Positions 1-48,286 of a DNA stretch of 64,000 nt are shown here, in pieces; position 1 is the stretch's first letter; the number at the start of each line of letters is the position of its first letter. The stretch covers positions 256,001 to 320,000 of the forward strand of contig CAVUDW010000002.1 in the NCBI GenBank assembly GCA_963740355.1, given 5' to 3'. The position numbers and the translations under genes are program-made. The notes below the pieces were generated by a model. That model was not told where the DNA came from. It saw nothing but the letters and a program-made list of their open reading frames with translations, and did no database searches. Source of the stretch: an uncultured Gemmatimonadaceae bacterium (lineage in GTDB: Bacteria; Gemmatimonadota; Gemmatimonadetes; Gemmatimonadales; Gemmatimonadaceae).

Positions 1-2
1 AC

Positions 3-518
3 TCGCCGGGCGATCAGCGGTTGGTGGCGTACGTCGTCCCGGCCGAGGGCGCGGCCGTGGCCTCGGAAGGGCTGCGTGCCCTGTTGCGCTCGCGGCTGCC
101 TGAATACATGGTGCCTGCGACGATCGTCCCGTTGGCCGAGCTGCCGCTCACGCCGAACGGCAAGATCGATCGGAAGGCGCTCCCGGCGCCGGCCGCCGTG
201 CGACCCGCTGCCGCGACCGCGTCTGACACCGTCATGACCGATCCGCAGCGTCGTGTTGCCGCCATCTGGCGCGACGTGCTCCGCATCGAGCACCTCGGCG
301 TCGACGACAACTTCTTCGACCTGGGCGGACACTCCCTCCTCGTCGTGAAGGTGCATGCGGCCCTCCGACGTGAGTTCCAGAAGGAGCTCACCCTCGTTGA
401 CCTCTTTCAGCATACGACCATTGCTGCGCAAGCCACTCTCGTTTCGTCCGAGGCCACCGATCGTGGCGCGTCCGTCCAGAGGGCGCGCGCACGCGCGGCT
501 CGGCAAGTCCATGTCTGA
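3..518 (+). CDS. NRPS C-terminal fragment (end of A domain + PCP), 5'-partial
   Basis: Frame open from position 3 (SPGDQRLVAYVV). Has LPEYMVP, the A10 motif LPLTPNGKIDRKAL and the PCP motif DNFFDLGGHSLL. True stop may be at 555 (see findings). Confidence 0.93.
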   Translation, partial: SPGDQRLVAYVVPAEGAAVASEGLRALLRSRLPEYMVPATIVPLAELPLTPNGKIDRKALPAPAAVRPAAATASDTVMTDPQRRVAAIWRDVLRIEHLGVDDNFFDLGGHSLLVVKVHAALRREFQKELTLVDLFQHTTIAAQATLVSSEATDRGASVQRARARAARQVHV

Positions 519-10181: not shown

Positions 10182-10954
10182 GCGCCGTGGCTTCGCCACC
10201 GGCACTGGTGCGCCTCGGCCATCGCCCTGAACCGCGCCGCCGCCTCTTCTGCTTGCCGTTTGCAGGCGGTGGTGCCGCGGCGTATGGCTTGTGGTGGCGT
10301 TCGCTGCCGGCAGACATCGAGGTGCAGGCCGCGTTGTTGCCGGGTCGCGAATCGCGCATCCGCGAGCAGCCGCTGGACACCATCGCGGCGATGGTGGACG
10401 CTGTCTTGCCATCGATCCAAGCGAAGCTGGACCTGCCCTATGCCATCTTCGGGCACAGCATGGGTGGGCTGCTGGCATTCGAGATTGCGGCGGCGCTGGA
10501 GCGCGCCGGTGGTCCCGCGCCAGAGCACCTTTTCGTGTCAGCGCGGCGTTCACCGGATGAGCCGGACCCTGCGACGCCGATGCATCGGCTGCCGGAGCTC
10601 GAGTTTCTCGACACCATGAACGATCGCTACGGCGCCGTGCCTGAAGCGGTGCGCGCCGAGCGTGAGTTGCTCGAACTGTTGCTGCCAGTGCTGCGGGCAG
10701 ACACCCACGCCATCGAGACCTACGAGCCGTCGCGCGAGCGCCGCGTGCGCTGCAAGGTCCATGTCTTCGGCGGACTCGAAGATCGATATCCAACGCCAGC
10801 GCAGTTGCCGAACTGGCAGCGTGTGGCCGAGCAGCCGATTCGAGTTCGCGTTTTTGCTGGTGATCATTTCTATCTCACGGCCCAGCGCGACGCGCTGACG
10901 GCGGACATTGCTGCCACATGGCAGACCGCTCCAGTAGAGGCGGCACGGGCATGA
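10178..10954 (+). CDS. Type II (editing) thioesterase
   Basis: LFCLPFAGGGA, LPGRESR, FGHSMG, LRAD, GDHFY. Start placed at ATG 10178 (ATGA overlap, GGAGG upstream) rather than 10094. Confidence 0.93.
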   Translation: MSAVASPPALVRLGHRPEPRRRLFCLPFAGGGAAAYGLWWRSLPADIEVQAALLPGRESRIREQPLDTIAAMVDAVLPSIQAKLDLPYAIFGHSMGGLLAFEIAAALERAGGPAPEHLFVSARRSPDEPDPATPMHRLPELEFLDTMNDRYGAVPEAVRAERELLELLLPVLRADTHAIETYEPSRERRVRCKVHVFGGLEDRYPTPAQLPNWQRVAEQPIRVRVFAGDHFYLTAQRDALTADIAATWQTAPVEAARA

Positions 10955-21500: not shown

Positions 21501-22132
21501 GTGGGCGCGGATTGCACTGGATCGATCCCGAGCGCGCCTTCGCGCAGATGGCGCGGCTGCTCGCAGAGCACGCCACGCAGGTGATTGCGATGCCCATCAA
21601 CTGGGCACAGTTCCTCGAAAGACTGCCCGCAGGCGAGGATCGCAGCTTCTTCCGCGCGGTCGAGCCGATGGTGCGTCGAGTGCCGACGGCACCGCTGGCA
21701 GCCACCGGCCGCGCGGTGTCGGTGGTGGAGAGCTGGCGCGCAGCACCGGCGTCAGCCTGGCGCGACCTCGCCATTGCGCACGTCCTCGAGCGAACGCGCC
21801 AGGTGCTGGGGGTAGACGACCTGTTCGTGATCCCGGAAGGGGTGGCGCTGAAGGATGTGGGACTCGATTCGCTGATGGCGGTCGAGTTGCGCAACGTGCT
21901 GACGCGGTCGCTGGGCAAGTCGCTGCCGGCGACCCTCCTCTTCGACTACCCGTCGCTCGATGCACTGAGTGGCTACCTGCTGCGCACCTTCGAGCTGTTA
22001 CCACCGGTGGTGCCCGCCGTCGTGAGCGTGCCAACCAACGCCACCTCCGAGATCGAAACACTCACCGACGAGGAAGCAGAAGCGTTGCTGCTGGCCGAAC
22101 TGAACTCCCTGGACTCCCAAGGCCGCCGATGA
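15559..22132 (+). CDS. PKS module M2: KS-AT-DH-ER-KR-ACP, one frameshift near 17900 in this sequence
   Basis: ORF 15559-18144 has KS (DTACSSS) and AT (GHSIG, YAFHS). Reading continues in ORF 17495-22132 from PCYSSVTG with [38 protein letters not shown]. Confidence 0.9.
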
Positions 22133-25100
22133 GCAGCGACACCACGACACCCGCCGACCTGTCACCCGTCAAACGCGCGCTGCTCGAAATTCGCGACCTC
22201 CGTTCGCGCCTCGCCGCGCTGGAAGCGGAGCGACACGAGCCGATAGCGATCGTTGGCATGAGCATTCGCGCCCCCGGTGGTGTCACGGATGTGGCGAGCT
22301 ACAGCCGATTGCTCTGGTCGGGCACCGACGCGATCACCGATATCCCGGCATCGCGGTGGTCGATGGAGGAGTGGTATGCCGAACCGCAGGACGCGGCCGG
22401 CAAGATGTACACCCGGTTCGGTGGTTTCATCAGTGATGTCGACCAGTTTGATGCCGAGTTCTTTGGTATCGCGCCGGTCGAGGCCGCGAGCATGGACCCG
22501 CAGCAGCGGCTGGTGCTGGAGTTGGCGTGGCACGCCCTGGAGGACTCTGGGCACGCGCCCGCTTCGCTGGCTGGCACGGCCGCTGGCGTCTATCTCGGCA
22601 TCTCCAACAGCGACTACGGTCGTGCGTTGTTTGCGCACCCCGAGTTGATCGATCCGTACTTCAGCCCCGGTACGGCGTCGAGCGTGGCTGCGGGCCGTGT
22701 GTCATATGTGCTCGGCCTGCACGGGCCGGCCATCAGCGTGGACACCGCCTGTTCGTCATCGCTGGTGTCGCTGCACCTTGCCGTGCAGGGATTGCGGCAG
22801 GGCGAATGCGACCTGGCGTTGGCCGGCGGTGTGAACCTGATCCTGACGCCCGAATTGAACGTCAACTTCTCGAAGGCCGGGATGATGTCGCGCGATGGTC
22901 GTTGCCGGACGTTCGATGCGGATGGCGCGGGATATGTGCGAGGTGAAGGCGGCGGCATGGTGGTGTTGCGTCGGCTGCGTGATGCCGTCGCCGACGGTGA
23001 CCGTATCCTGGCGGTGGTGCGTGGCAGCGCCGTCAACCAGGATGGTCGCAGCAATGGACTCACCGCGCCGAACGGGCCCTCGCAGGAAGCGGTCGTGCGC
23101 GCCGCGCTGGCGAACGCCGGAATCGCACCGAAGCTCGTGAGTTACGTCGAGGCGCATGGGACGGGCACGTCGCTCGGTGATCCGATCGAGGTCAACGCGC
23201 TGAGCGCAGTGTTGTGCGAGGGCCGCGATGCCGATTCGCCGCTGATGCTCGGTTCGGTGAAGACCAACATCGGTCATCTCGAGGCGGCGGCCGGTATTGC
23301 CGGCGTGATCAAGGCGGTCATCGCGCTGCAGCAGCAGGAGATTCCGCCGCACCTGCATTTCGCGACGCCCAATCCGTACATCGATTGGACGGCCATGCCG
23401 ATGCAGGTGCCGACGACCGTGACGCCCTGGGCACCCATCGAGGGTCGACGGGTGGCTGGTGTGAGTTCATTCGGCTTCAGCGGCACGAATGCGCACGTCA
23501 TTCTCGAGCAAGCGCCTGAGCCGGCATCGAGTGATGCAACGCCGGTTGGTGCGGCCGAATACGTGCTGGCGTTGTCCGCGCGAGACACAACTGCGCTACG
23601 CACGCTGGTGGAGCAGTTCAGTGACCGACTGCGCGCCGTCGATGCAGCGGACACCGCGACGCTGGCGAACATCTGCTTCACCGCCAGTGTGGGCCGATCC
23701 CATCTCGCCCATCGACTCGCCGTTTCTGGCGCGACCGCTGAGGCGTTGGTGGTGGGACTGGACGCCTGGTTGCACGGGACATCGCATCCACGCGTCGTCA
23801 CCGGTGTGGCTGGCGCGGAGGCGCCGCGCGTTGCGTTCCTGTTTCCTGGGCAGGGGCCGCAGTACGTGGGCATGGGGCGTCAGCTGTATGACACCATTCC
23901 CGAGTACCGCCGAGCGTTCGATGCCTGCGCCGACGCACTCGATCCGCTGCTGCCGCTGCCGATTCGCCCAATCGTCTTCCCTGACGACGGCGATGCTACG
24001 CTCCTCAACCAGACGGCGTACGCCCAGCCCGCGATGTTCGCGATCGAATACGCGCTGGCGTCGTTGTGGAAGTCATGGGGCGTGCAGCCGACGGCCGTGA
24101 TGGGTCACAGCTTCGGTGAATACGCGGCGGCCTGCGTGGCCGGTGTGGTGTCGCTGCCGGATGCGGCGAAGATGGTGGTGACGCGCGGCCGGCTGGTGGC
24201 GGCATTGCCCGGCGACGGCTTGATGACGGTTGTCGAAGCCTCCGAATCGGAACTGCTGGATGCGATTCGTGCCCAGGGTGGGGTGGTGGCGATCGCGGCC
24301 ATCAACGGTGCGTCGAACTGCGTGATCAGCGGTGACCGGAAGGATGTGACCGCGATTGCCGAAGGATTCGGTGCGATGGGTCGCCGCACCAAGGCGCTGC
24401 GCGTCTCGCACGCATTCCACTCGCCAATGATGGATCCGGTGCTGGATGAGTTCGAGCGGGAGCTTTCGTCGGTGACCTATACCGCGCCTACCACCAGCCT
24501 GATCTCGAACCTGACCGGAAACGTGGCCGATCTGTCGACGATCGGACATACGCACTACTGGCGCGAACACCTGCGGAATTCGGTGCGATTCTCGCAATCG
24601 GTGCAAGTCCTGGCTGCGCAGCGGATTACGCACTACATCGAAATGAGTCCGCATCCAGTGCTGCTTGGCATGGCGGCAGAGTGCGTGACGGGCGGCGTCT
24701 GGCTGCCGTCGTTGCGTGAGGATCAGGGCGCGTGGTCGGAGATGCTGCTCGCGCTGCAGCGCCTCTACGTCGATGGTGCGGCGATCGAGTGGGCTGCCGT
24801 CGTGGGAACTGGTGCGCATTATCGCGTCCAGCTGCCGACGTATCCGTTCCAGCGAAAGCGGCACTGGATCGACGCCGTTGGTACCCCCGCAGTGAGCAGT
24901 GCGGCGAATGCCCCGATCGCCGACTTCTGGTCAGTGGCCGTACCTTCGCTCAACGCACAGGCGCTGCGCGGACCGCTCGACCTGGATGCGGAATCGTATC
25001 CCGCGAAGTGGGAGTGCCTCGCTCGGCTGACGAATGCGCTGGTCATGCAGGCGCTGCGCGACCTCGGTGTGTTCACGCGCAAGGGCGAGTCCCACACGCT

Positions 25101-26547
25101 CGATACGATCCTCGACGTCGCCGGCATCCTGCCGACGCATCGCCATCTCGTGTCGCGCTGGCTGCAACACCTGGTGGCGGACGGCTCTCTACGGCAGGAT
25201 GGCGACGTCTTTCTCGTGCGCGAATTGCGTCCACGCGCACCGCTGGCGGAACTGTGGGCGGAAGCGGAACAGCGCTTCCAGAACAACCGTGAAATGCTGG
25301 CGTACGTGAAGAACTGCGCTGCGCGACTGACGGCGATCGTGACCGGCAAGGAGAGTTCGCTCGAGTCGCTGTTCCCGAACGGCTCGTTCGACCTCGCGAC
25401 CGCGCTCTACGAGCAGTCGGCCACCATGCGGTACATCAACGGACTGGCCGCCGCAGGGATCGAAGCGGTGGGTCGAACGATGCCGGTAGGGCGCACACTC
25501 CGCGTGCTGGAGATTGGCGCCGGTACTGGTGGCACATCCTCGTCGCTGATCCCGGTGCTGGCAGCTGATCGGACCGATTACCTCTTCACCGATGTCAGTG
25601 ACGCGTTCCTCGAGCGCGCGCGGGGGCGATTCGCCAACTATCCGCAGGTGCGCTTCGGCCTCTTCGATCTCGAGATCGATCCGGCGCAGCAAGGTTACAC
25701 TGCTGGACAGTTCGACGTGATCGTGTCGGCCAACTGCGTGCATGCGTCGCGCGACCTGCGTGCCGTGCTGGCGCGACTGCGCGCGCTGCTGGCACCAGGT
25801 GGGCTGCTGATGCTGGTCGAATCGACCGTGCACTTCGACTTCTTCGACATCACCACCGGATTGATCGAAGGCTGGCAGGCATTCGCCGACGATCTCCGGA
25901 CCGACAATCCGCTGCTCCCGCCCGAAACCTGGACGGAGGCGATGCGCGTCGCTGGCTTCGAGTTCGCCGAAGCGTGGCCGGAGCGGAGTTCAGTGGCGGA
26001 TGCACTTGGCCAACACGTCATCGTCGCACGGGCGCCGGGGGCCGTCTCGGCAGTGGCGACCGCTGCTACAGCACCGCGGACCGAACGTGCGGTGGCGGAC
26101 GTTCCGGCGGCACCAGTCGTGAACGATTTCCGGCTCCGCCTCGTGGAGGCCCTGCCCGCCGAGCGCCACGCAATGATGTGCGACGGGGTGCGCGGTGAAG
26201 TGATGCGTATCCTGCGCCTGGACGCATCATCGCCACCCTCTCGGCAGGATCGCCTGATGGAATTGGGCATGGATTCACTGATGGCGGTGCAACTGCGCAA
26301 CGCCCTCTCGACCATGCTCGAACTCGATCGAGCGTTGCCCTCGACCCTCATCTTCGACTACCCGACCATCGATGCAATCGCGGGCTTCCTGATGGAACGG
26401 AGTGGCCTGCTTGCCGCCGCGACACCGTCGCCGGTCGTTGCGACGCCGCGAGTCGATGAGACGGCAACCATCGCGGCCAGTACGATCGCCGGCATGAGTG
26501 ACGATGAAATCGCGGCCGCCCTGCTGGCGCGCGAGGATGGCGCGTGA
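22129..26547 (+). CDS. PKS module M3: KS-AT(malonyl)-MT-ACP, no reductive domains
   Basis: KS DTACSSS. AT GHSFG and HAFHS. SAM motif LEIGAGTGG and ANCVHA. ACP GMDSLM. No KR Rossmann motif seen. Confidence 0.93.
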   Translation: MSSDTTTPADLSPVKRALLEIRDLRSRLAALEAERHEPIAIVGMSIRAPGGVTDVASYSRLLWSGTDAITDIPASRWSMEEWYAEPQDAAGKMYTRFGGFISDVDQFDAEFFGIAPVEAASMDPQQRLVLELAWHALEDSGHAPASLAGTAAGVYLGISNSDYGRALFAHPELIDPYFSPGTASSVAAGRVSYVLGLHGPAISVDTACSSSLVSLHLAVQGLRQGECDLALAGGVNLILTPELNVNFSKAGMMSRDGRCRTFDADGAGYVRGEGGGMVVLRRLRDAVADGDRILAVVRGSAVNQDGRSNGLTAPNGPSQEAVVRAALANAGIAPKLVSYVEAHGTGTSLGDPIEVNALSAVLCEGRDADSPLMLGSVKTNIGHLEAAAGIAGVIKAVIALQQQEIPPHLHFATPNPYIDWTAMPMQVPTTVTPWAPIEGRRVAGVSSFGFSGTNAHVILEQAPEPASSDATPVGAAEYVLALSARDTTALRTLVEQFSDRLRAVDAADTATLANICFTASVGRSHLAHRLAVSGATAEALVVGLDAWLHGTSHPRVVTGVAGAEAPRVAFLFPGQGPQYVGMGRQLYDTIPEYRRAFDACADALDPLLPLPIRPIVFPDDGDATLLNQTAYAQPAMFAIEYALASLWKSWGVQPTAVMGHSFGEYAAACVAGVVSLPDAAKMVVTRGRLVAALPGDGLMTVVEASESELLDAIRAQGGVVAIAAINGASNCVISGDRKDVTAIAEGFGAMGRRTKALRVSHAFHSPMMDPVLDEFERELSSVTYTAPTTSLISNLTGNVADLSTIGHTHYWREHLRNSVRFSQSVQVLAAQRITHYIEMSPHPVLLGMAAECVTGGVWLPSLREDQGAWSEMLLALQRLYVDGAAIEWAAVVGTGAHYRVQLPTYPFQRKRHWIDAVGTPAVSSAANAPIADFWSVAVPSLNAQALRGPLDLDAESYPAKWECLARLTNALVMQALRDLGVFTRKGESHTLDTILDVAGILPTHRHLVSRWLQHLVADGSLRQDGDVFLVRELRPRAPLAELWAEAEQRFQNNREMLAYVKNCAARLTAIVTGKESSLESLFPNGSFDLATALYEQSATMRYINGLAAAGIEAVGRTMPVGRTLRVLEIGAGTGGTSSSLIPVLAADRTDYLFTDVSDAFLERARGRFANYPQVRFGLFDLEIDPAQQGYTAGQFDVIVSANCVHASRDLRAVLARLRALLAPGGLLMLVESTVHFDFFDITTGLIEGWQAFADDLRTDNPLLPPETWTEAMRVAGFEFAEAWPERSSVADALGQHVIVARAPGAVSAVATAATAPRTERAVADVPAAPVVNDFRLRLVEALPAERHAMMCDGVRGEVMRILRLDASSPPSRQDRLMELGMDSLMAVQLRNALSTMLELDRALPSTLIFDYPTIDAIAGFLMERSGLLAAATPSPVVATPRVDETATIAASTIAGMSDDEIAAALLAREDGA

Positions 26548-29500
26548 GCGAACAGGCGTCCGGCACACCGGCACTCTCCCCACTCCAGCGCGCCTTCATC
26601 GCGCTGGAGGAAACGCGCGCACGCCTGAAAGTGGCGGAAGCGGCTGCGCGCGAACCGATTGCAGTCATCGGGCTCGGTTGCCGTGTGCCAGGCCAGGCGA
26701 ACGACGCCTCGAGTTTCTGGAAGTTGCTCAGCGAGGGTGTCGACGCGATCGGCCCGGTGCCGGCGGATCGATGGGACGTTGATGCGTATTACAACCCCGA
26801 TGCAGAGAACCCCGGCACCATCGCGACCCGCCACGGTGGCTTCCTTGGCGCCGTGGACGGGTTCGACCCGACGTTCTTCGGGATCGCACGTCGTGAAGCG
26901 CAGGGGATGGACCCGCAGCAGCGCCTGTTGCTCGAGGTGGCGTGGGAAGCGCTGGAGCATGCCGGCCAGGCGCCAGATGGCCTGACGCGCTCATCCACCG
27001 GCGTGTATGTCGGGTGCGCTGGCAACGATTACGCGTTCATGCAGCTCGAGACCCGCGACCGTGAGCTGCTGGATTCGCACTTCGCGTCGGGTATGGGACA
27101 CAGCGTGCTTTCGGGCCGCATCTCCTACCTGCTTGGATTGCAGGGCCCGAGCCTGACGGTGGACACCGCCTGTTCATCGTCGCTGGTGGCGGTGCATCAG
27201 GCCTCGCAGGCACTGCGCGCCGGGGAGTGCCGGATGGCGCTGGCTGGCGGTGTGAACCTGATCCTGTCGCCCGACATCTACATCGCGCTGTCACGCTCGC
27301 GGATGCTCTCGCCCGATGGTCGCTGTCGCACCTTCGACGCCGCAGCGGACGGGTTCGCGCGGGGCGAAGGCTGCGGCGTGGTGGTGCTGAAGCGATTGAG
27401 CGACGCCGTGGCTGATGGTGATCGTGTACTGGCCGTCATTCGCGGCAGCGCCGTGAATCAGGATGGTGCGAGCAGTGGCCTCACGGCGCCGAACGGCCCG
27501 CAGCAGGAAGCGGTGATCCGCGAAGCATTGACGCGCGCCGGCATTGCGCCGCGACTGGTGAGCTACATCGAGGCGCACGGCACCGGTACGCAGCTCGGCG
27601 ATCCGCTCGAGATGCAGGCTCTGGGCGAGGTGTTCGGTGCGGATCGCGATGGCGTGCCCGCATTGTACGTCGGCTCGGTGAAGACGAACGTCGGTCACCT
27701 CGAAGCTGCCGCCGGTGTCACGGGGCTGATCAAGCTCGTGTTGTCGCTGCAGCACAAGGAGATTCCCGCCCACCTGCACTTCACCACGCCCAGCCCCCAC
27801 ATCCCGTGGGACGAGATTCCTGTGCAGGTCCCGACCAAACGTATCGCCTGGCCGGCGATCGACGGTCGGCGGATTGCCGGTGTCAGCTCGTTTGGTTTCA
27901 GTGGAACGAACGCGCACATCGTGGTCGAGGAAGCGCCGGCGACGGCGCCTGAACCGCTTGGCAGTGCGCTGCGACGGCTCGTGTTTGCGATGTCAGCCGA
28001 GAGCGAAGCGGCCTTGAAGGCGCTGGCAGCAGTGTATGCGTCGAGCTTCGTGGAAACGGCGGAAGGTGACTTTGCGAATGTGTGCTACACGGCGGCGGTG
28101 TCGCGGGCGAAGCATCCGTATCGCGCCGTTGTGCTGGCGTCCTGTGTGCAGGAGTTGCGTGAGTCACTGCTGAACCTTGTGGACGGTGTCGAGGATGATC
28201 GGGTGCGAACGGCGCGTGTCACGGGTCGCGATCCGGCACGCCTGGCCTTCCTGTTCACCGGACAGGGCGCACAGTACGCGGGCATGACGCAGCAGCTGAT
28301 CGAACACGAGCCGGTGTTTCGTGATGCGATCGATCGATGCGCCGCGATCCTCGCTCCGGTGCTCGACAAGCCGCTGCGGTCGCTGCTCGATGCCGCATCG
28401 CCTGACGCACGCTTCTCGACGAGACCCAGTACACGCAGCCGGCACTGTTCGCGGTGGAATACGCGATGGCGTGCCTGTGGCAGTCGTGGGGTATCTCACC
28501 GGACGCGGTCATCGGGCATTCCGTCGGCGAATACGTCGCGGCCTGTGTGGCAGGCGTGCTGTCGCTCGACGATGCGCTGCGACTGATCACCGAACGTGGC
28601 CGCCTGATGCAGGCGTTGCCTGCGGGCGGTGCAATGGCGGCGATCTTTGCACCGGAAGCCGAGGTGTCACCGCTGGTCGAATCGCGTCGCGACGCACTCG
28701 CGATCGCTGCGATCAATGGCGCGGCGCAGACGGTCGTATCTGGCACCACCGAGCCGCTGTTGACGAACTCGCGGCCCACTTCACAGCGCGCGGCATTCGC
28801 GTGCAGAAGCTGACGGTTTCGCATGCGTTCCACTCGCCGCTGATGGACCCGATGCTGGAAACGTTCCAGCGTGCGGCGTCGCAGGTCACCTACGCACGCG
28901 CCTCGACTGCGGCTGATCTCGAACGTGACTGGTGCGGTAGCCGATGCCGCTGTGGTCACCACGCCGACGTATTGGCGCGACCATGTGCGCGCCGCCGTGC
29001 GATTCGCCGACGGGATGCGCTCACTGGCCGCACTCAAGCCGGATGTCTGTCTCGAAGTCGGCCCACACCCGACGTTGCTGCCGTTCGCGAGGAAGCCTTC
29101 GTCGACGGTGCGTCACGCTTCGCGGCCAGCGTGCGCAAGACGCTGCCACCGTACGACCAGCTGGCAGAAGCGCTGGGGACGCTCTTCCTCGCTGGCGCGC
29201 CGATCGACTGGCGTGCCGTCTGGTCGTCGCATGCGGTGACGCTGGTCGACCTGCCGACGTACCCGTTCCAGCGCGAGCGCTGCTGGTTCGCTGCCAAGCG
29301 TGTCTCGGCGGCGAATGGGCAAGGACACGGGCCACCCGCTGCTCGGCACGCGATTGCGGTCCTCGCTGAAGGACGTCGTGCAGTTCGAGCGGGTACTCCA
29401 GTCGACTGATCTGCCCTACCTCCGCGATCATCGGGTGAGTGGACGGACGATTCTCCCGGGCGCCGCGTACGTCGAGATGGCATTGAGTGCCGCGCGTCTC

Positions 29501-32500
29501 GTGCTCGACGGCACGCGTGCGATTCATGATCTCGTGATTGCCGAACCCCTTGTGGTCGGTGATGATGAGGCGCGGCGCGTGCAGACGGTCATTCGCTTCC
29601 GTGATGACGGTGTGTCGACGTTCGAGATCGTATCGATCGACGCGGCAGCCGACGACGATGAGTGGCATGTGCACGCGAAGGGCACCTTGCCGGCACTGTC
29701 GCAGGTCGCACCAGCAGTGCCAGCTCAGTCGTCGACATTTGATGCGCGTATCGACGGGGCGACGCACATCGATCAGTTGGCGGCCCGTGGCCTGGTGTTC
29801 GGGTCGAGCCTGCATGGCGTGCGGCAGATCGATCGTGTGGACGGCGCCGCGGTCGGCGTCATCACGCAGCCGATCGACGTCGAACACGACGAGTCGCATT
29901 ACCTGCTCCCACCCGCACTGCTCGACGCCTGTCTGCAGGTGATCGCGTCAGCGATTCCCGACGGCGCAAGCCGGAATGTGCCGTACCTGCCGCTGATCAT
30001 CGAACGGATCCACGTGTACCGCACGCCCGACGCCTCGGTGCGGAGCTTTGCGTTCGTCAACGAGCCAGCCGTACGACCCGCGGAGACGCTGACGGGTCGC
30101 ATCGTGATCGTCGACGCACTCGGCGTGGCAGCAGAGTTGGAGGGTGTCACGCTGCGCGCCGCGGCGGACGACAGTAGTGCGGTCGCGAAGGACCTGTACA
30201 CGGTGACATGGGAACGTCTCGACGAGCAGGCGCCGTGGACACCGACGACGACGCAGTTGGCACATACCGTCGGGCCGAAAGCTCGACGCGCTCGCCGTCG
30301 AACACGACTTCGCGTCGTACTTCCGTGCCTATGCGGCACTCGAGACGCTATCGACGAACTGGATCGTGCTGGCGCTGCGTGAACTGGGCTGGGCTCCACG
30401 ACCGGTGATACCGTGCGCGCCGCCGATCTTGGCGTCACCCTTGGCGTGTTGCCACGATACCATCGCCTGCTGCATCGCCTGCTCGAGATCCTTCACGAGG
30501 ATGCCATCGTGCGTCGCGAGGGCGATTCGTTCGTGGTGATCGAACTGCCAGCGGCGGACCTGTCATCGACGATCCCTCCGGCCGCGGCTGTCTTCGGGCC
30601 GTCCTCTGCACGCCTCGAAATCACGCAGCGGTGCGGCGATGTGTTCGCTGACATCCTGCGCGGTGACGTCGATCCGTTGCAGCAGCTGTTCCCGAATGGT
30701 TCGTCCACCCTCGCGGAGTCTCTGTATCGCGACACGCCGGAGGCGAAGGGATTCAATCAGCTCGTGCGCGAGACGGTGCGCGAAGTGGCGTCGTGTCTGC
30801 CTGCTGATCGCACGCTGCGCATCCTCGAGGTGGGCGGTGGCACCGGTGGCACGACCGCCTGGGTGTCACCGATCCTCGACGCTGCACGCACCGAGTACCT
30901 GTTCACCGACCTCGGGCCGCTGCTGGTCGAGCGCGCGCGTGAACGGTTTGGGCCGGCGAACCCGTACATGCAATTCGCGACAGTTCGATCTCGAGCGTGA
31001 TCCATCGTCGCAGGCACCGGGTGGCAAGCAGTTCGATGTGATCCTGGCGTCGAACGTGATTCATGCCACCGCCGACCTTCGGCAGACGCTGCGTCACCTT
31101 CGCGGCCTGCTGGCCCCCGGCGGCGTGCTGCTGATGCTGGAAGTCGCGGATCGCGAGCGCTGGATCGACCTCACCTTCGGCTTGACCGATGGCTGGTGGC
31201 GATTCGTCGATACCGATCTGCGTGCCGAGTACCCTCTGCTGTCGCGCGACGAGTGGATCGCCCTGCTGGCATCGGAAGGGTTCGAAGCGGAACCGGTGAA
31301 CGCGCCGCATCCGCATTCGCGCGAGGTATTGCTGGCGGCACGGAAGCCTGCGCAGGAGAAGTGTGCCGGCGGGTCAATCGTGGTTGGTGCTGGCGGACGC
31401 CGGTGGTGTGGGTGATGCCCTTGCCACGCGCCTTCGTGAAGACGGACAGCAGGTGCAGGTCGTTCATGCGCGCTGCCGCCGCAGAGGTGCAGCAGTCGAT
31501 CGCCGAACATGCGGCAGCAGCGGTTGGCATCGTGCACCTCTGGAGCCTCGATGTACCGCCGGCCGACGAGCGTGACGCGACCTCGCTGCTTTCGGCGCAG
31601 GAGACCAGCCTCGGTTCCATCCTGACCGTCGTGCAGGCGCTTGGACGCATGTCGTTCGCCAGTGACGCGGCGCCGCGACTGTTCATCACCACGCGCGGCG
31701 CAACGGCGGCTGGTGCGACTGCACCGGTGGAGTTGTCGCAAGCCGCAGTCTGGGGCTTGGGGATGGGTGTGGCGCAGGAGCATCCGGAGTTGCGTCCGAC
31801 GAGAATCGATCTCGACGCGACAGCCACCGTCGAGTCGCAGGTGGCATCGCTGCTCGGTTGCCTGACGTTGCCGCCTGAGGACGACCAGTACGCAGTGCGC
31901 GGCGCGTCACGATATGTGCCGCGGATCACACCGTACGTCGCGCCGGCCGTGGCATCACCGGCGGGCACGTTGCAGCGTCTCGAGCGCTCGGCGAGTGGCG
32001 TGTTCGAGGATCTGTCGCTGGTCACCTTGCCGCGTGTGGCACCGGCCCCTAACCGCGTGGAGATCGAGATCCACGCGGCCGGACTCAATTTCCGCGACGT
32101 GATGAACGCCGTGGCGATGCGTGACGACGACGAACCGCTGGGCGGTGAATGCGCCGGCCGCGTGGTGGCCGTGGGCGAAGGCGTCACGGAATTTGCCGTC
32201 GGGGATGCCGTGGTGGCGATCGCCGAGGCGGCGTTCAGCACGTTTGCCACGGCTGATGCGGGGCATGTTGCGCCATTGCCGAGTGGGCTGAGTTTTGCCG
32301 AAGCGGCAACGCTGCCGTTCGCCTTCATGACCGCCCATCACGCATTGTACGGGTGCGCGAAGTTGCAACGCGGCGAGACGGTCTTGATTCATGCGGCGGC
32401 GGGTGGCGTCGGACTCGCTGCGGTCCAGCTGGTGCAGTCGGCCGGCGGCGACATCATCGCCACGGCCGGCAGTGAGAGCAAGCGCGCGTTCCTGCGTCAG

Positions 32501-34183
32501 CTTGGTGTGGAGCATGTCTTCGATTCCCGTTCGACTTCGTTTGCGGCTGATGTCATGCGTGTCACCGACAATCGGGGCGTCGATGTCGTGCTCAACTCGC
32601 TGGCGGGCGAATTCATTCCCGCCAGCGCGTCGTGCCTCACGCCAACCGGTCGATTCCTCGAGATCGGCAAGCGCGACATCTGGTCCGATGCCGACTTCAC
32701 GGCGGTGCGTCCGAACGGCGCCTACTTCGCGATCGATCTCGCCAGGGTTCGCCTCGAGTCGCCGGCCGAATCGCACGCGCTCTTCCGCGCCACGATTGCA
32801 GAAGCCGCAGCGGGGCGAATCCGTCCGCTGGCCTTGCGCGCCTTCCCGTTGCACCAGGCCGCCGCGGCGTTCCGCTTCATGGCGCAGGCGCGCCATATCG
32901 GCAAGATCGTGCTGGTGCCGGAGGGGGCCACACGCGGGGCGCTCGATCGCCTCGTCCCGGATGCGACCTACCTGATCACCGGCGGCCTGACCGGCATTGG
33001 TTTGCTGACCGCGACGCATCTGGTCGCACGCGGCGCCAGGCACTTGATGCTGGTCGGTCGCCGCGCGCCGAGTGATGCGGTCATGACCACCCTGGCAGCG
33101 ATGCGCGATGCCGGTGTCGAAGTGCGCACTGCGTCGGTGGATATGGGCAGCGCCGCGGATGTTGACCGGTTGCTGCGCGACGTCGCTGCCTCGATGCCGC
33201 CGCTGCGTGGCGTGATCCACTCCGCCGGTGCGCTCGACGACGGCGCATTGCTACAGCTCTCGTGGCCGCGCTTCGTGACGCCGTTGAAGGCCAAGATGGA
33301 TGGATCGTGGGCCCTGCACGTGCACACACGACACCAGCCGTTGGACTTCTTCATCATGTATTCGTCGGTGGCCTCGGTGCTGGGTTCGTCAGGACAGAGC
33401 AACCACAGTGCTGCCAACGCCTTCATGGATGCGCTGGCATTCCATCGCCGCGCCGAGGGGCTGCCTGCGACCAGCATCAGCTGGGGTGCGTGGAGCGAAA
33501 TTGGTGCGGCGGCGGATCGTCGCGTCGACCAGAGTGTGGCGGCGCTCGGCATCGGTGTGATCACGCCGACGGCCGGCCTGCAGATGCTCGATATGGTAAC
33601 ACGTGGCGATGCCGCACACGTGACGGCGCTGCCAGTGCAGTGGCTGCAGTTGCGCGCACATCGGCATCCGCGGAATGGCTCGCGGTATCTGGATCGGGTG
33701 GCACACGCGGCCGTGGTGGCGCCATCGGCACGCCCGCAGGCTGCCGCAGGGACGCAGCGCGGCGCGTCGGCAGTGGACCTCGACGCCCTGCGCGATGCGA
33801 CGCCAGCCCGTCGCCACGCGGCGATGCTGGCGTTCGCCGGTGACCACGTGGCACGCGTGCTCAGTGCACCGTCGGCACAATCCATCGACGTCGACCAGCC
33901 GCTCAATGAGCTGGGCCTCGATTCACTGATGGCCGTCGAGCTTCGCAATCGACTCAGCCGCGGGTTGCAGCTCGAACGCAGCCTGCCTGCCACGCTCGTG
34001 TTCGATCATCCAACGCTGGATGCCATCGCTCGTTTCCTCGTCGATACCGTATTGCCCGGTGGCGTGGACGCGGATGTGCCAGCACCAGCCGTCGCCGTGC
34101 CCACCGACGCCGTCGGTGCCATCGATGACCTTACTGACGAACAGATCGACGCCATGTTCGCCAACCGCATGCGCAACTCATAG
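26544..34183 (+). CDS. PKS module M4: KS-AT(malonyl)-DH-MT-ER-KR-ACP, broken by about 10 frameshifts between 28400 and 31480 (sequencing error or pseudogene)
   Basis: Motifs run collinearly across frames: [40 protein letters not shown] and [33 protein letters not shown]. Confidence 0.85.
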
Positions 34184-40898
<6,715 letters not shown>

Positions 40899-40902
<4 letters not shown>

Positions 40903-43900
40903 CCGAACCGCAGCAACCCGACTACCGCGCCCTCCTCAAGCGATCCCTCGTTGCCATCGACAAGCTCGAAGGCAAGCTGGCGGCGATCGAGAGTGCGAAA
41001 GCCGAGCCGATTGCGGTCGTGGGCATGGCCTGTCGCTTTCCCGGTTCGTCCAACGACCTCGCGAGTTTCTGGAAGCTGCTGCACACCGGCACCGATGCGG
41101 TGACGGTGGTCCCGGCACATCGTTGGGACGCCGAGGCGTCGTACGATACTGATCCCGATGTGGTGGCGAAGAGCTACACCAAGTGGGGCGCGTTCATCGA
41201 CGAAGTCGAGACTTTCGATGCCTCGTTCTTCGGCATCTCACCGCGCGAGGCCGTCTCACTCGATCCGCAGCAGCGGCTGCTGCTCGAGGTCACGTGGGAG
41301 TCGCTGGAGCATGCAGGCATCGCGCCGTCGTCGATTGCGGGGACGCGCGCGGGCATCTTCGTCGGTATCTCGACGCTCGACTACGCCAACATGATCGGCG
41401 AGCATGTGGGCCTGAGGAACGGTGATGCGTACTCCGCCTCGGGATCCGCGCACAGCATCGCATCAGGACGCCTCTCGTATTTCCTCGGGGTCCATGGCCC
41501 GAATTACGTCGTCGACACGGCCTGTTCCTCATCGATCGTCGCAATCCACAATGCGATCATCTCGCTTCGCAACGGCGAGACGGGGCTGGCGATTGCGGGT
41601 GGCGTGAGCCTCACGTTGTCCGACGTCGGCTCGATCCTGACGTCGCGCGCCCGAATGATGTCGTTCGACGGCCATTGCAAGACCTTCGACGAGTCGGCTG
41701 ACGGCTATGTGCGCGGCGAAGGCTGTGGCATGGTGGTGCTGAAGCGTCTCAGCGACGCGGAACGCGACGGCGATCGAATCCTTGCCGTGCTCCGAGGCTC
41801 CGCCATCAACCAGGATGGGCGGAGCAGCGGGCTGACCGCGCCGAACGGCACCGCGCAGGAAGCCGTCATCCGTGATGCGCTGAGCAATGCCCGCCTGTCC
41901 CCGAAAGACATCAGCGTCATCGAGGCACACGGCACCGGTACGCCCCTTGGTGATCCAATCGAGATGAAGGCGCTCGGTGCCGTGTTCGGCGACCGGTCGA
42001 CGGACAAGGCGTTGCTCGTGGGTTCCGTGAAGACGAACATCGGCCACCTCGAAGCCGCGTCCGGCGTGGCAGGCCTGATCAAGGTGATCCTTGCGATGCG
42101 CGCCGGCGTGGTGCCGCCGCACCTGCACTTCAAGAACCCCAATCACCTGATTCCATGGGATGCCCTGCCGGTGCGTGTGCCGACGGCACCGACCGAGTGG
42201 GTCACGGAACCTGGCGTGCCACGCCGCGCCGGCGTCAGTTCGTTCGGCTTCAGCGGCACGAACTCACACCTCATCGTCGAGGAGGCGCCGGCCCCGAAGC
42301 TTGGCGCGCAAGTCGGACGCATCGCCAGGCCGCAACTGCTCGTCCTCTCGGCGCAGACGACGACCGCGCTTCGCCAGCAGGCCGAGCGATACGCGGCGTT
42401 CCTGCAGCTTGCGCAGGGTGTCGAGCTTGGCGACATCGCGTTCACGGCCGCGACCTGTCGCTCACACCTCCCCGAGCGCCTGACGCTGGTGGCTGAGGGC
42501 GCGGACAGCGCGGCCGACCAGTTGTCGCGCTTCGTGGCCGATGAAGAGGTGCCGGGCCTGGCCGTTGGTCGATTCACCTCCGGTACGGCGCCGGAGATCG
42601 GCTTCCTCTTCTCCGGTCAGGGCGCGCAGTATCCGGGCATGTCGCGCGAGCTCTACGAGACGGAACCCGTCTTCCGCGCGGCATTGGATGCGTGCGCCAC
42701 GATCGCCGACGGCCTGCTGCCGTCACCGCTGATTCCCGTCATCCTCGGTGATGAGGGTGTGCGTGAACTCCTCGACGACACGGCCTTCACGCAGCCTGCA
42801 TTGTTCGCGGTGGAATACGCACTGGCGCAACTCTGGAAGTCGTGGGGCGTCGAGCCTGCGATCGTGATGGGGCACAGCGTTGGCGAATACGTCGCGGCGT
42901 GCCTCGCCGGTGTCTTCTCGCTCGAGGATGGCCTGCGACTGATCGCAGCGCGTGGTCGCCTGATGAGCGTACTGCCGCGTGACGGCTCGATGGTGGCGGT
43001 GTTTGCCTCACGCGAGCGCGTAGCGTCGGCACTGCGTGGCCATGAGGCGGATGTGGACATCGGTGCCGTCAATGGCCCGACCAACACCGTCATCTCTGGT
43101 CGGACACACGCCGTCGATGCGATCCTCAACACGCTGGCCGCTGAAGGCATCGAGTTCGCACGGCTCAACGTGTCGCACGCGTTCCACTCGCCGCTGATGG
43201 ATCCGATGCTCGACGAGTTCGAGCGTATCGCGTCCACTGTCACCTACGCCGCGCCTTCCATCGGGCTCGTCTCGAACGTGACCGGCCGCATGGCGGGTGC
43301 CGAGGTGGCCACGGCTGCGTACTGGCGGCAGCATGTGCGCGCTGCGGTGCAGTTCACCGATTCCATCGCCACGCTGCACGCGGAGAACATCCACACCTTC
43401 CTCGAGATCGGCCCATCGCCGGTATTGGTGGGCATGGGGCAGCGGTGCGACGGTGCAGAGCAGTCCAGCTGGTTGCCGTCACTGAAGAAGGGTCGCAGTG
43501 ATCGCGCGTCGATGCTCGAAAGTGTCGGTCGACTGCATGTTGGCGGGCAGCCGATTGCCTGGAGTGCCGTCTGCGACGCCGGTGCACGTCGCGTGGACCT
43601 GCCGACGTATCCCTTCCAGCGTGAGCGCTACTGGTTCGACTCGATGTACCGGCCGCCCGTACAGCAAGCCGTGTCCGGCCGTTCCACTGGGCATCCGCTG
43701 CTCGGTGACCGGATTGCGAGCCCGATGCGGCTGTACCAGACGGCGCTCTCGATCGCGACCACCCCCTGGCTCTCCGATCACCGCATCTACGAATCTCCGC
43801 TCTTTCCCGTCACCGGCTTCCTCGAACTGGCGATGGCTGCGGGCCGTCATGCCATTGGCACCGATGATGTGGCGCTCTCCAACGTCTCGCTGCGCGAAGG

Positions 43901-46900
43901 GCTGACCATTCCCGAACCCGGCGCCGTGACGATGCAGGTGATCGTCACACCGCACGACGATGGGACGCAGCAGGTGCAGGTGTTCAGTGATACCGCCGAC
44001 GATGCGGATGGCGCGGGCGAGACGGAGTGGCGGTTGCACCTCTCGGCGACTGTCGCGCGTTCCTCCGTCGCGGCACCACCGGCGGGTCTGCGAGCCCTGC
44101 CGAGCGAAGGCCGCAGCGAGCGTGATGTGCCGGAGTACTACAAGAAGTTGCACGAGCAGGGTGCCTACTACGGTCCTGCCTTCCGCGGAATCACGTCGAT
44201 TGCGCGCAGCGCTGATCAGGTGCTCGGTCACGTGCGCCTGCCTGACGAAAGTGCGACGGACAGCGAGAAGTATTTCGTGCACCCGGCATTGCTCGATTCG
44301 TGTGTGCAGCTGATCGGTGTGGGCCTGCCGTGGGCTGATGATCCGCGCTCGACCGACGATATCTGTGTGCCGGTGGGCCTCGCCTCGTACCATGTCTATC
44401 GGCCCGCGGTCACCGACATCTGGTGTCATGTGGAGTCGGTCCGTCCGAACGCCAGCAACAGCAGCATCACCAGTGACTTCGTGCTCACCGATGTGAATGG
44501 TGAGATCGTGGCGCGCGTCGAGGCGCTGGAGATGCATCGCGTGACGCGGGCAGCGATGCAGAAGGTGAACGACAAGCCGGTCAAGCCTGACTGGATGCTG
44601 GAAGTGGAGTGGCAGGCGTCACCGATGGAGACGGCTGCAATTCCTGCGTCAGGCAAATGGCTGGTGGTGACGGATGGCGGCACGCTGGCTGGCAGCCTCG
44701 CCACACAGCTGGGGGCAAAGGGAGCGTCGGTGTTCGTCGCGTCGCATGCGACGGAGTTCGCCGCCACGGCGGCCGGCTGGTCGATCGACGTCACCGATGC
44801 CTCACACTACAAGCGGCTGTTCGCCGAGGCGTCGACGCGCGATGCAGCGCCATGGCAGGGTGTCGTGTCGATGGTCGGTGCACATCCTGTGCTGGTCACG
44901 GATGACAATGAGACGCTGCACCGCGCGCACACGCTGCGCATCGCGGCGCTGCTGGCGATGTTGCCGGCCGTCGTCGAGGCTGGCGCGCGCTTCTCGATCG
45001 TCACCCATGGTACGCAGGCTGTGGGTGATGTGGTGCCCGATCTCGCCGATGCCCCGATCTGGGGCCTCGCGAACGTGGTGGCGTCGGAATATCCGGCGCT
45101 GCGCGTGACGCGAATCGACATGGACACTGCGCCTCGCAAGGATGACGCGGAGCTGCTGGCGGCTGCCCTGACAATCGGCGACAGTGAGGACCGCGTGGCA
45201 CTGCGCGGCGGGCAACGCTACGTGGCGCGTCTGGCGCAGGGCGTGTTGCGCTCCGTCGACGCCATGCCGCCGCGACGGCTCGAGATCATGGAGCGCGGAA
45301 TCCTCGAGAACCTGCAGCTCAACGTCGTGCCGCGTGAAGCGCCTGGCGTGGGCGAAGTAGAGATCCGTGTCTACGCCACGGGCCTCAACTTCCGCGACGT
45401 GCTCAACGCGCTCGGCATGTACCCTGGTGATCCGGGACCACTCGGAAACGAATGCTCGGGTGTGATCACGGCCGTCGGTGAGGGCGTGGACGATCTGTTC
45501 GTTGGTGATGAAGTGGTGACGATGATCGATCGCAGCTTCGCCACGTATGTACTCGCCCCCGCGATGCAGACCGTGCGCAAGCCAGCGAACCTGAGCTTCG
45601 TGGAGGCGGCGACGATTCCCGTCACCTTCCTCACGGCGGAGTACGCGCTCAGTCATCTCGCGGGCATGAAGGCCGGCGACAAGGTGCTGATCCACGCAGC
45701 GACTGGTGGTGTCGGCATGGCGGCCATTCAGCTGGCGCGTCGCGCCGGCGCCGAGATCTTCGGCACCGCGGGTTCACCGGCCAAGCGCGCCATGGCGCAG
45801 GCGCTCGGCTGTCATCACCTGTCGGACTCGCGCTCGCTGGTGTTCGCCGATGATTTCGATCGCATCACCAACGGTGATGGCGTCGACATCGTGCTCAACT
45901 CACTGGCCGGTGATTTCATCCCGACCAGCCTGCGCCTGCTGAAGCGCGGCGGCCACTTCATCGAGATCGGCAAGACCGGCATCTGGGACAAGGAGACTGT
46001 CGCACAGTCGTTCCCGGGCGTGAGTTATCACCCGCTCTACCTTGGCGAGGTGACGGCGGCCGAACCGCAGTTCATGCGCACCATGTTGCAGCGGTTGATG
46101 GACGATTTCGAGAGTGGTGCGCTCACGCCACTTCCGCAGCGCGTCTATCCGCTGGAGCGTGCCGAAGAAGCGTTCCGCTTCATGGGCCAGGGCCTGCACA
46201 CCGGCAAGATCGTGATCACGCAGCACCGGACGCCCGAAGTCCGTGACGACGCCAGCTACCTGATCACCGGTGGGCTGGGTGGCCTCGGCATCGCCTGCGC
46301 ACAGTGGCTGGCCGGGCTTGGCGCACGCAGCCTTGTACTGCTCGGTCGCCGTGCCCCGACACCTGAGGTGGAACGACAGCTGGCGGAGTTGCGTGCCAGC
46401 GGCGTGACCGTCACGGTGGCTTCATGCGACATCGCAAACGAGCGCGAAATCGCCGAGGTGCTGGAGCTGGTCCGCACGGCATTGCCACCGCTGCGCGGCA
46501 TCCTGCACGCGGCCGGTGTTGTGGACGACGGCATGTTGCCGGAACAGACGGTGGCGCGCTTCGAGCGCGTGATGGCGCCGAAGGTTCAAGGCACCTGGAA
46601 CCTGCATCAGCTCACGCGGTCGCTACCGATCGATTTCTTCGTGCTCTTCTCGTCGGGCGCCGCGTTGCTCGGGTCACCCGGGCAGGGCAACTACGCGGCC
46701 GCCAACAGCTTCATGGATGCCGTGGCCTACGTGCGAGGCGCGCAGGGTCGTCACGGCGTCAGCATCAACTGGGGAAGCTGGGCGGAAGTCGGCATGGCGG
46801 CTGAAGTCGGCGAGGCACATCGTCGCCGCTGGGCATCGCAGGGGCTTGGCATGATCGCGCCCGCCGACGGTGTTCGGATGCTGCAGGATATTCTGCAGCG

Positions 46901-47372
46901 TTCCACCGCACGCAACGTGGCGGCGTTGCCGCTCGACAAGGCTCGCCTGCCGCAAAACCTCGGCGTGTTCTTCGAGCGCTTGCTGGTGAAGGAGTCCAAG
47001 CAGGCCGCGCGCGGTAACACAGCGGGTGTCGACGTACTGCGACAGATCACCGACGCCACTCCCGAGGCACGTGAGGACATTCTCCGCGTTTTCCTCACCG
47101 AGCAGATCGTCCGTGTGCTGGCCCTCTCGTCGGCCAGTCGCGCACGTCCCGATCAGTCGCTGATGGACATCGGCATGGACTCGCTGACGGCGATGGAGCT
47201 TCGCAACCGTGTGCAGGGTGCGGTGAAGGTTCGCCTCTCGGTCGCCGACCTGCTGCAGGGACCGACGATCAATCAACTGACGACGATGATCCTCGGTGAA
47301 CTGGACTTCGGCACTGACGCCGTGGTCGCCGCCGTCGATGCAAGCGCCAGCTGGGAAGAAGGATCGTTGTGA
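40899..47372 (+). CDS. PKS module M6: KS-AT(malonyl)-DH-ER-KR-ACP with C-terminal WEEGSL motif
   Basis: Intact 2157-aa ORF: DTACSSS, GHSVG, HAFHS, DH HRIYESPLFP and HPALLD, ER HAATGGVG, KR VVDDG and FSS..YAAAN, ACP GMDSLT. No TE. Confidence 0.95.
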
Positions 47373-48286
47373 ACGACGGGGCGTTCGTCGACTCACGGGC
47401 CAAGAGTGTGTCGGGCCCTGATCGTCGGATTGCCATGTTGCTGATGGCCCTCTTCGCCGTGCTCTGGGCGGTGCTCGAGGACGAACTCGGTGTGCGGCTG
47501 CGACATCCCTACGATCTCACGGAGATCGTCTGGTTTCGATATGCCACGCACCTGCTGGTGGTTGGGTTGGTGTGGGGCGTCCGCCAACCCACGACCTTCT
47601 GGCGCACCTCACGCCTCGGACTGCAGCTCGGTCGATCAATCCTGATGCTGATCATGCCGGTGAGTTTTGCACTGGCGGTGATGCAGGGGGCGCCGGCGAG
47701 CGCGGTCTGGGCGGTGTTCTGGTCGGCACCGCTGATGATCGTGTGTTTTGCACGCGTGCTGTCGCCAGAGCGCGTTCCAGCCTGGGTCTGGGCCGTGACG
47801 ATCGCCGCCTCGCTTGGGGCGATCGCGATGGTTGGACCGCGCGGGCTGCCGGGTGGCATGGGCGCCGTCTGGCCAGTGCTGATGGCCGCGTCATTCGCGC
47901 TCTATGTCGTGCTGACGCGCACGCTGCGCACCGAGACGTTGTCAGCGAATCTCTTCTACACGGCCGTGGGTGTGATCATTCCGCTCAGCGTCTATGTGCC
48001 GCGCATCTGGGTCATGCCATCGCGGCATGACGCGGTGATCCTCTTCGGCATTGGGGCGCTTGGTTTTCTCGCGCTGCTGGCGCTCGATCGTGCCGCTGAG
48101 CGCGCCGAGGTGTCGCGTACGGCGGCCTTTCTCACGCTGCAGGTGGCCGCGGTGTTGTTCATCAACTGGTCGCGGCAGACGGCGCAGTTCTCGACAGTGA
48201 CGCTGGTTGGTGCGCTGCTGGTTGTGTCGAGTCTGACCGCGCTCTGGTTCGCCGGCACGCGCGTGAGACTGGCGGATCCCCGATAG
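47369..48286 (+). CDS. EamA/DMT-superfamily membrane transporter, possible product exporter
   Basis: 305 aa, about 10 hydrophobic segments, EIVWFRY and LQLGRS patterns typical of DMT permeases. GTGA overlap with M6. Confidence 0.8.
   Translation: MNDGAFVDSRAKSVSGPDRRIAMLLMALFAVLWAVLEDELGVRLRHPYDLTEIVWFRYATHLLVVGLVWGVRQPTTFWRTSRLGLQLGRSILMLIMPVSFALAVMQGAPASAVWAVFWSAPLMIVCFARVLSPERVPAWVWAVTIAASLGAIAMVGPRGLPGGMGAVWPVLMAASFALYVVLTRTLRTETLSANLFYTAVGVIIPLSVYVPRIWVMPSRHDAVILFGIGALGFLALLALDRAAERAEVSRTAAFLTLQVAAVLFINWSRQTAQFSTVTLVGALLVVSSLTALWFAGTRVRLADPR

Follow-up and report, generated by a model that had tools for sequence, protein, structure and literature searches.

A 64,000-nucleotide stretch of an uncultured Gemmatimonadaceae bacterium (here the window, G000:C2:256001-320000, from a 5.45 Mb genome with 65% GC that is 94.5% complete) carries a cluster of polyketide synthase (PKS) and nonribosomal peptide synthetase (NRPS) genes, the first of which begins to the left of the window. 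From the domains and docking ends of these genes and of their relatives we propose, with a probability of roughly 80%, that the cluster encodes one hybrid cis-acyltransferase PKS/NRPS assembly line in which gene order is rotated relative to order of action. The last PKS gene (M6) very probably hands its product back, through a predicted docking contact, to the NRPS gene at the front of the cluster (NRPS0), after which the PKS gene PKS552 and the NRPS gene NRPS5123 would follow. An earlier note on this DNA, made from the letters of the window, had put forward this permuted order (M1-M6, NRPS0, PKS552, NRPS5123); it is now backed by the way NRPS0 starts, by conserved tails, by the gene order of relatives and by covariation between tails and docking domains.

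Docking ends of the cluster

Two PKS genes of the cluster end in a short acidic tail behind their acyl carrier protein (ACP) domain. M6 (40899..47372, + strand) reads by Pfam as ketosynthase-acyltransferase-dehydratase-enoylreductase-ketoreductase-ACP (KS-AT-DH-ER-KR-ACP) with an N-terminal coiled segment, has no thioesterase (TE) and ends ACP...SASWEEGSL, its last six codons (WEEGSL) occupying 47352-47369 before the stop. PKS552 (552..5126, + strand; KS-AT-KR-ACP) ends ACP...GDREEFEL, with the last six codons (REEFEL) at 5106-5123 and then the stop. Both tails and the missing TE of M6 had been described in the earlier note, and reading frames and Pfam agree with it. The note had also held that the NRPS after PKS552 starts with a beta-hairpin docking domain (bHD), as it does: NRPS5123 (5123..8452, + strand, its start overlapping the PKS552 stop) has the order bHD3-C3-A-PCP without TE (C, condensation; A, adenylation; PCP, peptidyl carrier protein), and bHD3 matches TubC_N (PF18563) at residues 8-54, directly ahead of the C domain, with 48.2-53.5 bits against a cut-off of 26.

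Of NRPS0, the window holds the 3' end (A-PCP; 1..518, + strand). The whole gene (G000:C2:251551-256518, 1655 aa) has the Pfam layout bHD1(3-53)-C1(62-503)-bHD2(526-576)-C2(594-1041)-A-PCP, and therefore starts with a TubC_N and a C domain, not with a loading module, as the earlier note had predicted. The internal second docking domain and second C domain lie left of the window, outside the view of the earlier note. TubC_N scores are 44.6-49.3 bits for bHD1 and 53.2-58 bits for bHD2, and the HHxxxD motif is kept in both C domains (HHIASDGWS in C2). Because it begins bHD-C, NRPS0 needs an upstream donor. The genes preceding it encode a phosphopantetheinyl transferase, an ATP-binding cassette (ABC) transporter and efflux proteins, so NRPS0 is taken as the first biosynthetic gene.

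A profile search of the whole genome found three TubC_N domains, all in this cluster. We also scanned 52,444 stop-to-stop frames of at least 60 aa for the two kinds of tail, seeking a carrier-protein motif in the last 140 residues. The type-1 pattern [WFMLVIY]x[ED]Gx[LIVF] ends nine frames and the type-2 pattern [ED][ED][IVFLM]x[LIVF] ends ten; the carrier motif accompanies the former in M6 only and the latter in PKS552 only. Hairpins therefore outnumber tails genome-wide (three TubC_N domains against two tailed carriers), and a partner encoded elsewhere, which the earlier note had allowed for, is unlikely because all three TubC_N domains sit in the cluster and no other carrier bears either tail.

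The remaining PKS junctions look different, in agreement with the earlier note. By sequence inspection, M1-M5 have acidic, helical-looking C-termini after the ACP (for example LSDADALRAL in M1, MSDDEIAAALL in M3 and MSDDELALRLAQRL in M5), a helical-looking segment of about 30-35 residues precedes the KS in M2-M6, and M1, whose KS begins near residue 24, has no N-terminal docking segment. These ends of M1-M6 may be helical docking ends of a class-2-like kind. PKS552 also lacks an N-terminal docking segment, and its KS active site is TACSTS, a motif typical of KSs that follow NRPS modules. The C-terminus of NRPS5123 (...PVAGRT) is short, not acidic and not conserved in orthologues. NRPS0 itself ends in a short basic helix ...RARARAARQVHV (window 430-518) that is conserved in related clusters (RARARAARQ; RAKKRAERL in Alphaproteobacteria) and that may be an NRPS-to-PKS docking element of this cluster family.

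Gene order in related clusters

NRPS0 homologues with 53-57% identity over residues 1-600 are present in four Gemmatimonadaceae/Gemmatimonadales genomes (G001, G174, G003 and G002), all with the double docking/C layout. In each of them the final PKS ends WESGSL, WESGVL or WETGSL and another PKS ends REEFEL; the tails of PKS552 orthologues overall are REEFEL, REEFVI, REEIEF and REEILI. Gene order differs among orthologous clusters while the M6-type tail persists (G001, G174, G003, G002, G205, G204, G206). In G001 and G174 the last two PKS genes run convergently to the others, on the opposite strand. The PKS and NRPS0-PKS-NRPS operons diverge in an alphaproteobacterial metagenome-assembled genome (MAG; G206, last PKS ending WEEGTI) and in Hyphomonas oceanitis SCH89 (G210).

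A Polyangiaceae contig (G205) is fully colinear, in the order type II thioesterase, PKS(WEEGSI), NRPS0 homologue, PKS(REEIEF), bHD-C NRPS. In two proteobacterial MAGs (G204 and L038) a PKS ending WEDGTL or WEDGSL overlaps the start of a bHD-C-bHD-C NRPS0 homologue, and PKS552-like and NRPS5123-like genes lie farther upstream in G204. The adjacencies of tailed PKS to NRPS0, and of NRPS0 to PKS552 to NRPS5123, thus recur, and joined they give the order M1-M6, NRPS0, PKS552, NRPS5123. Clusters of Hydrogenophaga, Methylibium and Oceaniovalibus have a PKS ending REEIEF or REEFLL followed by a bHD-C NRPS; the NRPS preceding that PKS matches NRPS0 from about residue 60 with a single C domain, and the match holds no hairpin and no second C.

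Module numbers also vary. G174 has seven and G001 eight PKS modules against six here, with an extra penultimate module lying beside the final one on the opposite strand, and the products therefore probably differ in chain length. An extra KS-first module stands before the M1 homologue in G001 and G003.

Covariation of tails and hairpins

We assessed whether tails and hairpins vary together by fetching 80 C1-like, 78 C2-like and 80 C3-like loci and reading the C-terminus of the upstream gene wherever the C domain had kept an N-terminal hairpin. The hairpin was kept in 29 of the 80 C1-like loci, and 21 of these 29 had a large upstream open reading frame (ORF) ending within -3 to +56 nt. All but one of the 21 adjacent tails (20/21) were of the form hydrophobic-x-[E/D]-G-x-hydrophobic, for example WEEGSL, WEEGSI, WVEGEL, FEEGVL and MLEGEL. 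The other eight loci had no adjacent megasynthase gene, four of them being the non-colinear Gemmatimonadaceae/Gemmatimonadales orthologues. Among 21 C3-like loci examined, 13 had both a hairpin and an upstream tail, which was of the REEFEL/REEIEF/REEITI/REEMKL kind in every case (13/13). The C2-like set was sparser, with six usable pairs from 17 loci examined, five with bulky-residue tails and one with a Gly tail.

Across the 40 colinear pairs, which come from many phyla, a tail with Gly at position -3 always met a hairpin with F or Y in the middle of its second strand (F in LRFR; 21/21), and a tail with F, I, V, M or L at -3 always met a hairpin with V, I, L, C or A there (19/19; Fisher 7.6e-12 over the 40 pairs, with related sequences treated as independent). 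The covariation holds without pair L251, whose source genome (G212) is flagged as unpublished. Both hairpin classes are found in cyanobacteria and in Methylobacter. At the two loci where hairpin class and C-domain clade disagree (L147 and L042), the tail follows the hairpin.

In this cluster the hairpin residues are F in bHD1 (LRFR), V in bHD2 (LKVN) and I in bHD3 (LRIS), and position -3 of the tail is Gly in M6 and Phe in PKS552. By the covariation rule M6 is predicted to fit only bHD1, and REEFEL to fit both bHD2 and bHD3. Profile comparison gives a similar picture: bHD1 and its orthologues score 17-38 bits better with the type-1 profile, bHD3 and its orthologues come out as type 2 in every profile pair tried, and for bHD2 and its orthologues the type-2 profile leads by 2-23 bits. 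With bHD1 of type 1, bHD3 of type 2 and Gly at -3, M6 should therefore dock on bHD1 and not on NRPS5123; since bHD2 and bHD3 share a class, the PKS552 ACP is predicted to dock on bHD2 too, leaving PKS552 with two candidate ports.

It is plausible that the rule reflects two cross-strand residues of complementary size between flanking salt bridges (R-F-R opposite E-G-E), an arrangement deduced from the strand pairing given in the accessible part of PMC9113145 (here and below, papers are cited for their accessible parts). The same source puts the number of published SLiM/bHD pairs (SLiM, short linear motif) at more than 1,400. A literature search over such excerpts returned no named product for the cluster family and no description of a hairpin/tail code, which Kosol et al. 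2019 and Hacker et al. 2018 might contain.

A proposed second port on NRPS0

NRPS0 homologues were collected by searching residues 1-640 against a protein database (E ≤1e-40), which gave 2,299 proteins, and the best 120 were analysed by hidden Markov model. Two bHDs occur in 85 of these best 120, and 76 have the layout of one N-terminal and one internal bHD, the first aromatic and the second aliphatic in 71 of the 76. Only generic names appear among the best 120. Judged by these homologues, the double bHD-C layout is not an artefact of this assembly.

The NRPS0 A domain has the code DILQLGMIW, by motif anchors, with the K supplied by NGKIDR. DILQLGMIWK is listed for Gly-activating A domains (PMC12283262), and on this code the NRPS0 A domain reads as Gly. 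The partial code of NRPS5123, DILQIGGVY, is similar to it, not identical, and the assignment of a small, Gly-like residue is uncertain. Pairwise identity is 32% for C1-C2, 35% for C2-C3 and 27% for C1-C3, figures that do not tell which C domain serves which donor. C2 is the best conserved of the three among orthologues (64-70% identity, against 53-55% for C1 and 58-62% for C3), and its nearest relatives elsewhere are ordinary internal elongation C domains after PCPs.

We propose that M1 would start the polyketide and that the chain would pass along M1-M6 via the helical docking ends. The WEEGSL tail of the M6 ACP would then dock on bHD1, where C1 would couple the acyl chain to glycine on the NRPS0 PCP. 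PKS552 would add and then reduce a malonate unit, and its REEFEL tail would dock on bHD3 so that NRPS5123 could add a second small amino acid. From bHD3 the chain would proceed to release, presumably in trans by one or both alpha/beta hydrolases encoded behind NRPS5123 (hyd1, hyd2) and/or the type II thioesterase, the three candidate release enzymes. Glycine has one amine, and two C domains share one Gly-PCP, so the PCP would either be visited twice per product or serve alternative chains. If the PKS552 ACP docked instead on bHD2, C2 could add a further Gly and the chain would go round again. We infer that bHD2-C2 is a second, re-entry port, and we favour such pass-back as its role. The full scheme is held tentatively, as possible and somewhat doubtful: port 1 would admit the M6 polyketide, port 2 would re-admit the PKS552 chain, size-complementary tail/hairpin pairs would separate the two, and a Gly-plus-ketide unit would be repeated by hard-wired pass-back, in a design present in dozens of uncharacterised clusters from at least four phyla.

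Alternative explanations

The cluster could also be read as written, with C1 of NRPS0 acting as a starter C domain for an acyl group from primary metabolism, the chain then passing through PKS552, NRPS5123 and M1-M6, and the type II thioesterase or hydrolases releasing it from M6, whose tail would have no docking role. The genes do stand in that order on one strand with overlapping stops and starts, and M1, with a condensing KS and no docking head, could in principle accept a chain from a PCP. However, bHD1 would be left partnerless, since the genome encodes no further carrier protein whose tail would fit; the C-terminus of NRPS5123 is short and not conserved; relatives with inverted or divergent final PKS genes have nevertheless kept the tail; a tailed PKS stands directly before NRPS0 in G205, G204 and L038; and M6 lacks a TE. 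We regard this colinear line as very improbable. The earlier note had offered another alternative, in which WEEGSL and REEFEL are rivals for the NRPS5123 docking domain and a branched line makes two products. Both tails are acidic with a C-terminal Leu, and pairs of short linear motifs (SLiMs) with bHDs are promiscuous (PMC9113145, PMC13324335), but the covariation speaks against it: Gly at -3 goes with an aromatic hairpin in 21/21 pairs, bHD3 has the Ile seen in the bulky -3 pairs (19/19), and a fitting partner for WEEGSL, bHD1, is present in the cluster. Competition for NRPS5123 is accordingly disfavoured and seems to us hardly credible.

Other explanations concern the second port. NRPS0 could work like the icosalide synthetase, for which tandem C domains of this kind are described (PMC10510592): C2 would N-acylate Gly-S-PCP with the beta-hydroxyacyl group of PKS552 and C1 would esterify the M6 polyketide onto the hydroxyl, giving a branched depsi-lipopeptide with no repeated unit. 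The KR of PKS552 would supply the beta-hydroxyl, and the two ports do differ in docking class. This is nonetheless quite unlikely. In single-port relatives (bHD-C-A) the C1-like domains occupy ordinary PKS-to-NRPS junctions, for which an amide would be expected, and a different primer would be required for the PKS552 KS, whose active-site motif and adjacency to NRPS0 point to NRPS0 priming PKS552. Alternatively, bHD2-C2 may be a relic or a structural tether, for instance holding PKS552 beside NRPS0 for PCP-to-KS transfer without any condensation by C2. NRPS0 and PKS552 have no classical docking pair, just the short basic C-terminal helix of NRPS0, which would suit a tether; the conservation of C2 as the best kept of the three C domains (64-70%), the intact HHIASDGWS and the two-bHD layout in 85 of the best 120 homologues count against it, and we consider it unlikely.

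Several points weigh against the rotated order with a re-entry port. The 40 pairs are not phylogenetically independent, so the Fisher value overstates significance, and hairpin class largely tracks C-domain clade, with only L147 and L042 separating the two. The bHD2 of this genome prefers the type-2 profile by 13 bits when all sequences are used, a margin that drops to 4 bits once the cluster orthologues are removed from the profiles. FR-901375 biosynthesis can do without the SLiM, as the bHD there holds on to the ACP itself, and non-cognate SLiM/bHD pairs cross-talk (PMC13324335, PMC9113145), so that a tail-based code may overstate specificity. M1 has no recognisable loading domain, and the start of the line is therefore deduced rather than seen. 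Finally, M2, M4 and M5 are frameshifted; this strain may have lost a working line, or the assembly may contain errors.

Gene content, frameshifts and neighbouring genes

Every gene from the left edge to 48.3 kb lies on the + strand, mostly with stop/start overlaps. Pfam assignment found no cis thioesterase in any module of the cluster, and Cys-His-His is kept in 7/7 KS domains. Behind NRPS5123 follow hyd1 (8449..9234, + strand; Pfam Hydrolase_4), which is translationally coupled to it and is conserved behind the NRPS in G001, a second alpha/beta hydrolase, hyd2 (9231..10181, + strand; Pfam), and the type II thioesterase (10094..10954, + strand; Pfam Thioesterase, 163.7 bits), whose start codon is uncertain. 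The hydrolases are distantly like the exosortase A system-associated hydrolases TIGR03101 (hydrolase 2, to hyd1; 96.7 bits, below the cut-off of 202.75) and TIGR03100 (hydrolase 1, to hyd2; 73 bits, below the cut-off of 168.45).

The PKS series, assigned by Pfam and all on the + strand, starts with M1 (10918..15552; KS-AT-KR-ACP), the first PKS module, and continues with M2 (15559..22132; KS-AT-DH-ER-KR-ACP, frameshifted), M3 (22129..26547; KS-AT-cMT-ACP, with cMT a methyltransferase domain), M4 (26544..34183; KS-AT-DH-cMT-ER-KR-ACP, frameshifted) and M5 (34184..40902; KS-AT-DH-cMT-KR-ACP, frameshifted). The KS of M1 is of the condensing type (DAACSSG), and its AT has GHSLGE...VASH where the other ATs have HAFH. 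M6 is followed by an EamA-type transporter gene, a possible exporter (47369..48286, + strand; weak Pfam match, 30.5 bits), whose start overlaps the M6 stop.

The frame of M2 shifts once, near 17900; M4 has at least four frameshifts and an in-frame stop at 30380, and M5 two frameshifts, near 35600-35800 and 37260-37400, which amounts to about seven single-base frameshifts and one in-frame stop across these three genes (15559-40902). Frames are open in NRPS0, PKS552, NRPS5123, M1, M3 and M6, and all orthologues read in relatives are intact. A sediment-metagenome run (X1) contained 18% of the sampled words, and its short, low-depth contigs derive in part from a 91%-identical relative; compared with the window, these contigs have 1-nt indels at 28411, 29089, 30281 and 30980, with no clean match to the frame changes. 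Intact rpoB and rpoC genes argue against a genome-wide indel problem, within the little sequence sampled.

Upstream of the window, an AcrB-type resistance-nodulation-division (RND) pump ORF (L009:6432-9662; G000:C2:244432-247662) covers profile positions 252-1019 only. Its first quarter lies in another frame, and the G174 orthologue is a single 1054-aa frame, so this is another possible frameshift near the cluster. A second PKS-like locus on the same contig (G000:C2:932128-936889; L002, L007) has 66-76% DNA identity to the KS-AT of PKS552.

Comparison with known systems

Predicting the product of such a cluster needs the true assembly order from the docking ends, a reading that comparative gene order backs here. 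If true, the covariation would give a simple, testable rule for matching PKS subunits to NRPS subunits encoded apart from them, and it could help in choosing docking pairs for engineered lines. Metagenomes often contain the bHD-C-bHD-C-A-PCP module, whose built-in function may be to pass chains back or to merge two of them; because an orthologous cluster is present in the cultured Hyphomonas oceanitis SCH89, the idea is testable at the bench.

That docking ends can resolve a non-colinear gene order is already known. As in TubB/TubC and EpoA/EpoB, an N-terminal TubC_N leads into a C domain and the ACP of the upstream protein ends in a short tail (PMC13324335, PMC9113145), whereas here M6 and NRPS0 are not adjacent and NRPS0 has two TubC_N domains, one of them internal. 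Closest in numbers is the rhabdopeptide NRPS Kj12ABC, which works iteratively with three bHDs and two SLiMs (PMC9113145), the same count of hairpin domains and tails as in this cluster; Kj12ABC consists of NRPS subunits only, each with a single bHD, in contrast to the two bHD classes in one subunit of a PKS-NRPS hybrid whose iteration is so far our proposal. In enacyloxin biosynthesis the PCP-SLiM of Bamb_5917 recruits the bHD-C of Bamb_5915, encoded elsewhere in the cluster (PMC9113145, PMC13324335), much as we suggest for M6 and NRPS0, although Bamb_5915 is a stand-alone release catalyst and the bHD-C here is fused to an elongation module.

The proposed pass-back resembles that of thalassospiramide, where an NRPS-PKS segment is reused to give repeated amino-acid-plus-ketide units (PMC10510592); for the return step, the accessible part of that paper names neither a dedicated second C domain nor a docking port. 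Two C domains before one A-PCP are shared with the icosalide synthetase, whose C domains take different donors (PMC10510592). The second C domain of icosalide is of the starter type, with a fatty acyl donor, and no docking domains are described in that part of the source, unlike NRPS0, in which each C domain has a bHD of its own. Set beside these systems, what is new is the conserved NRPS module with two ports, together with the simple covariation between tail and hairpin.

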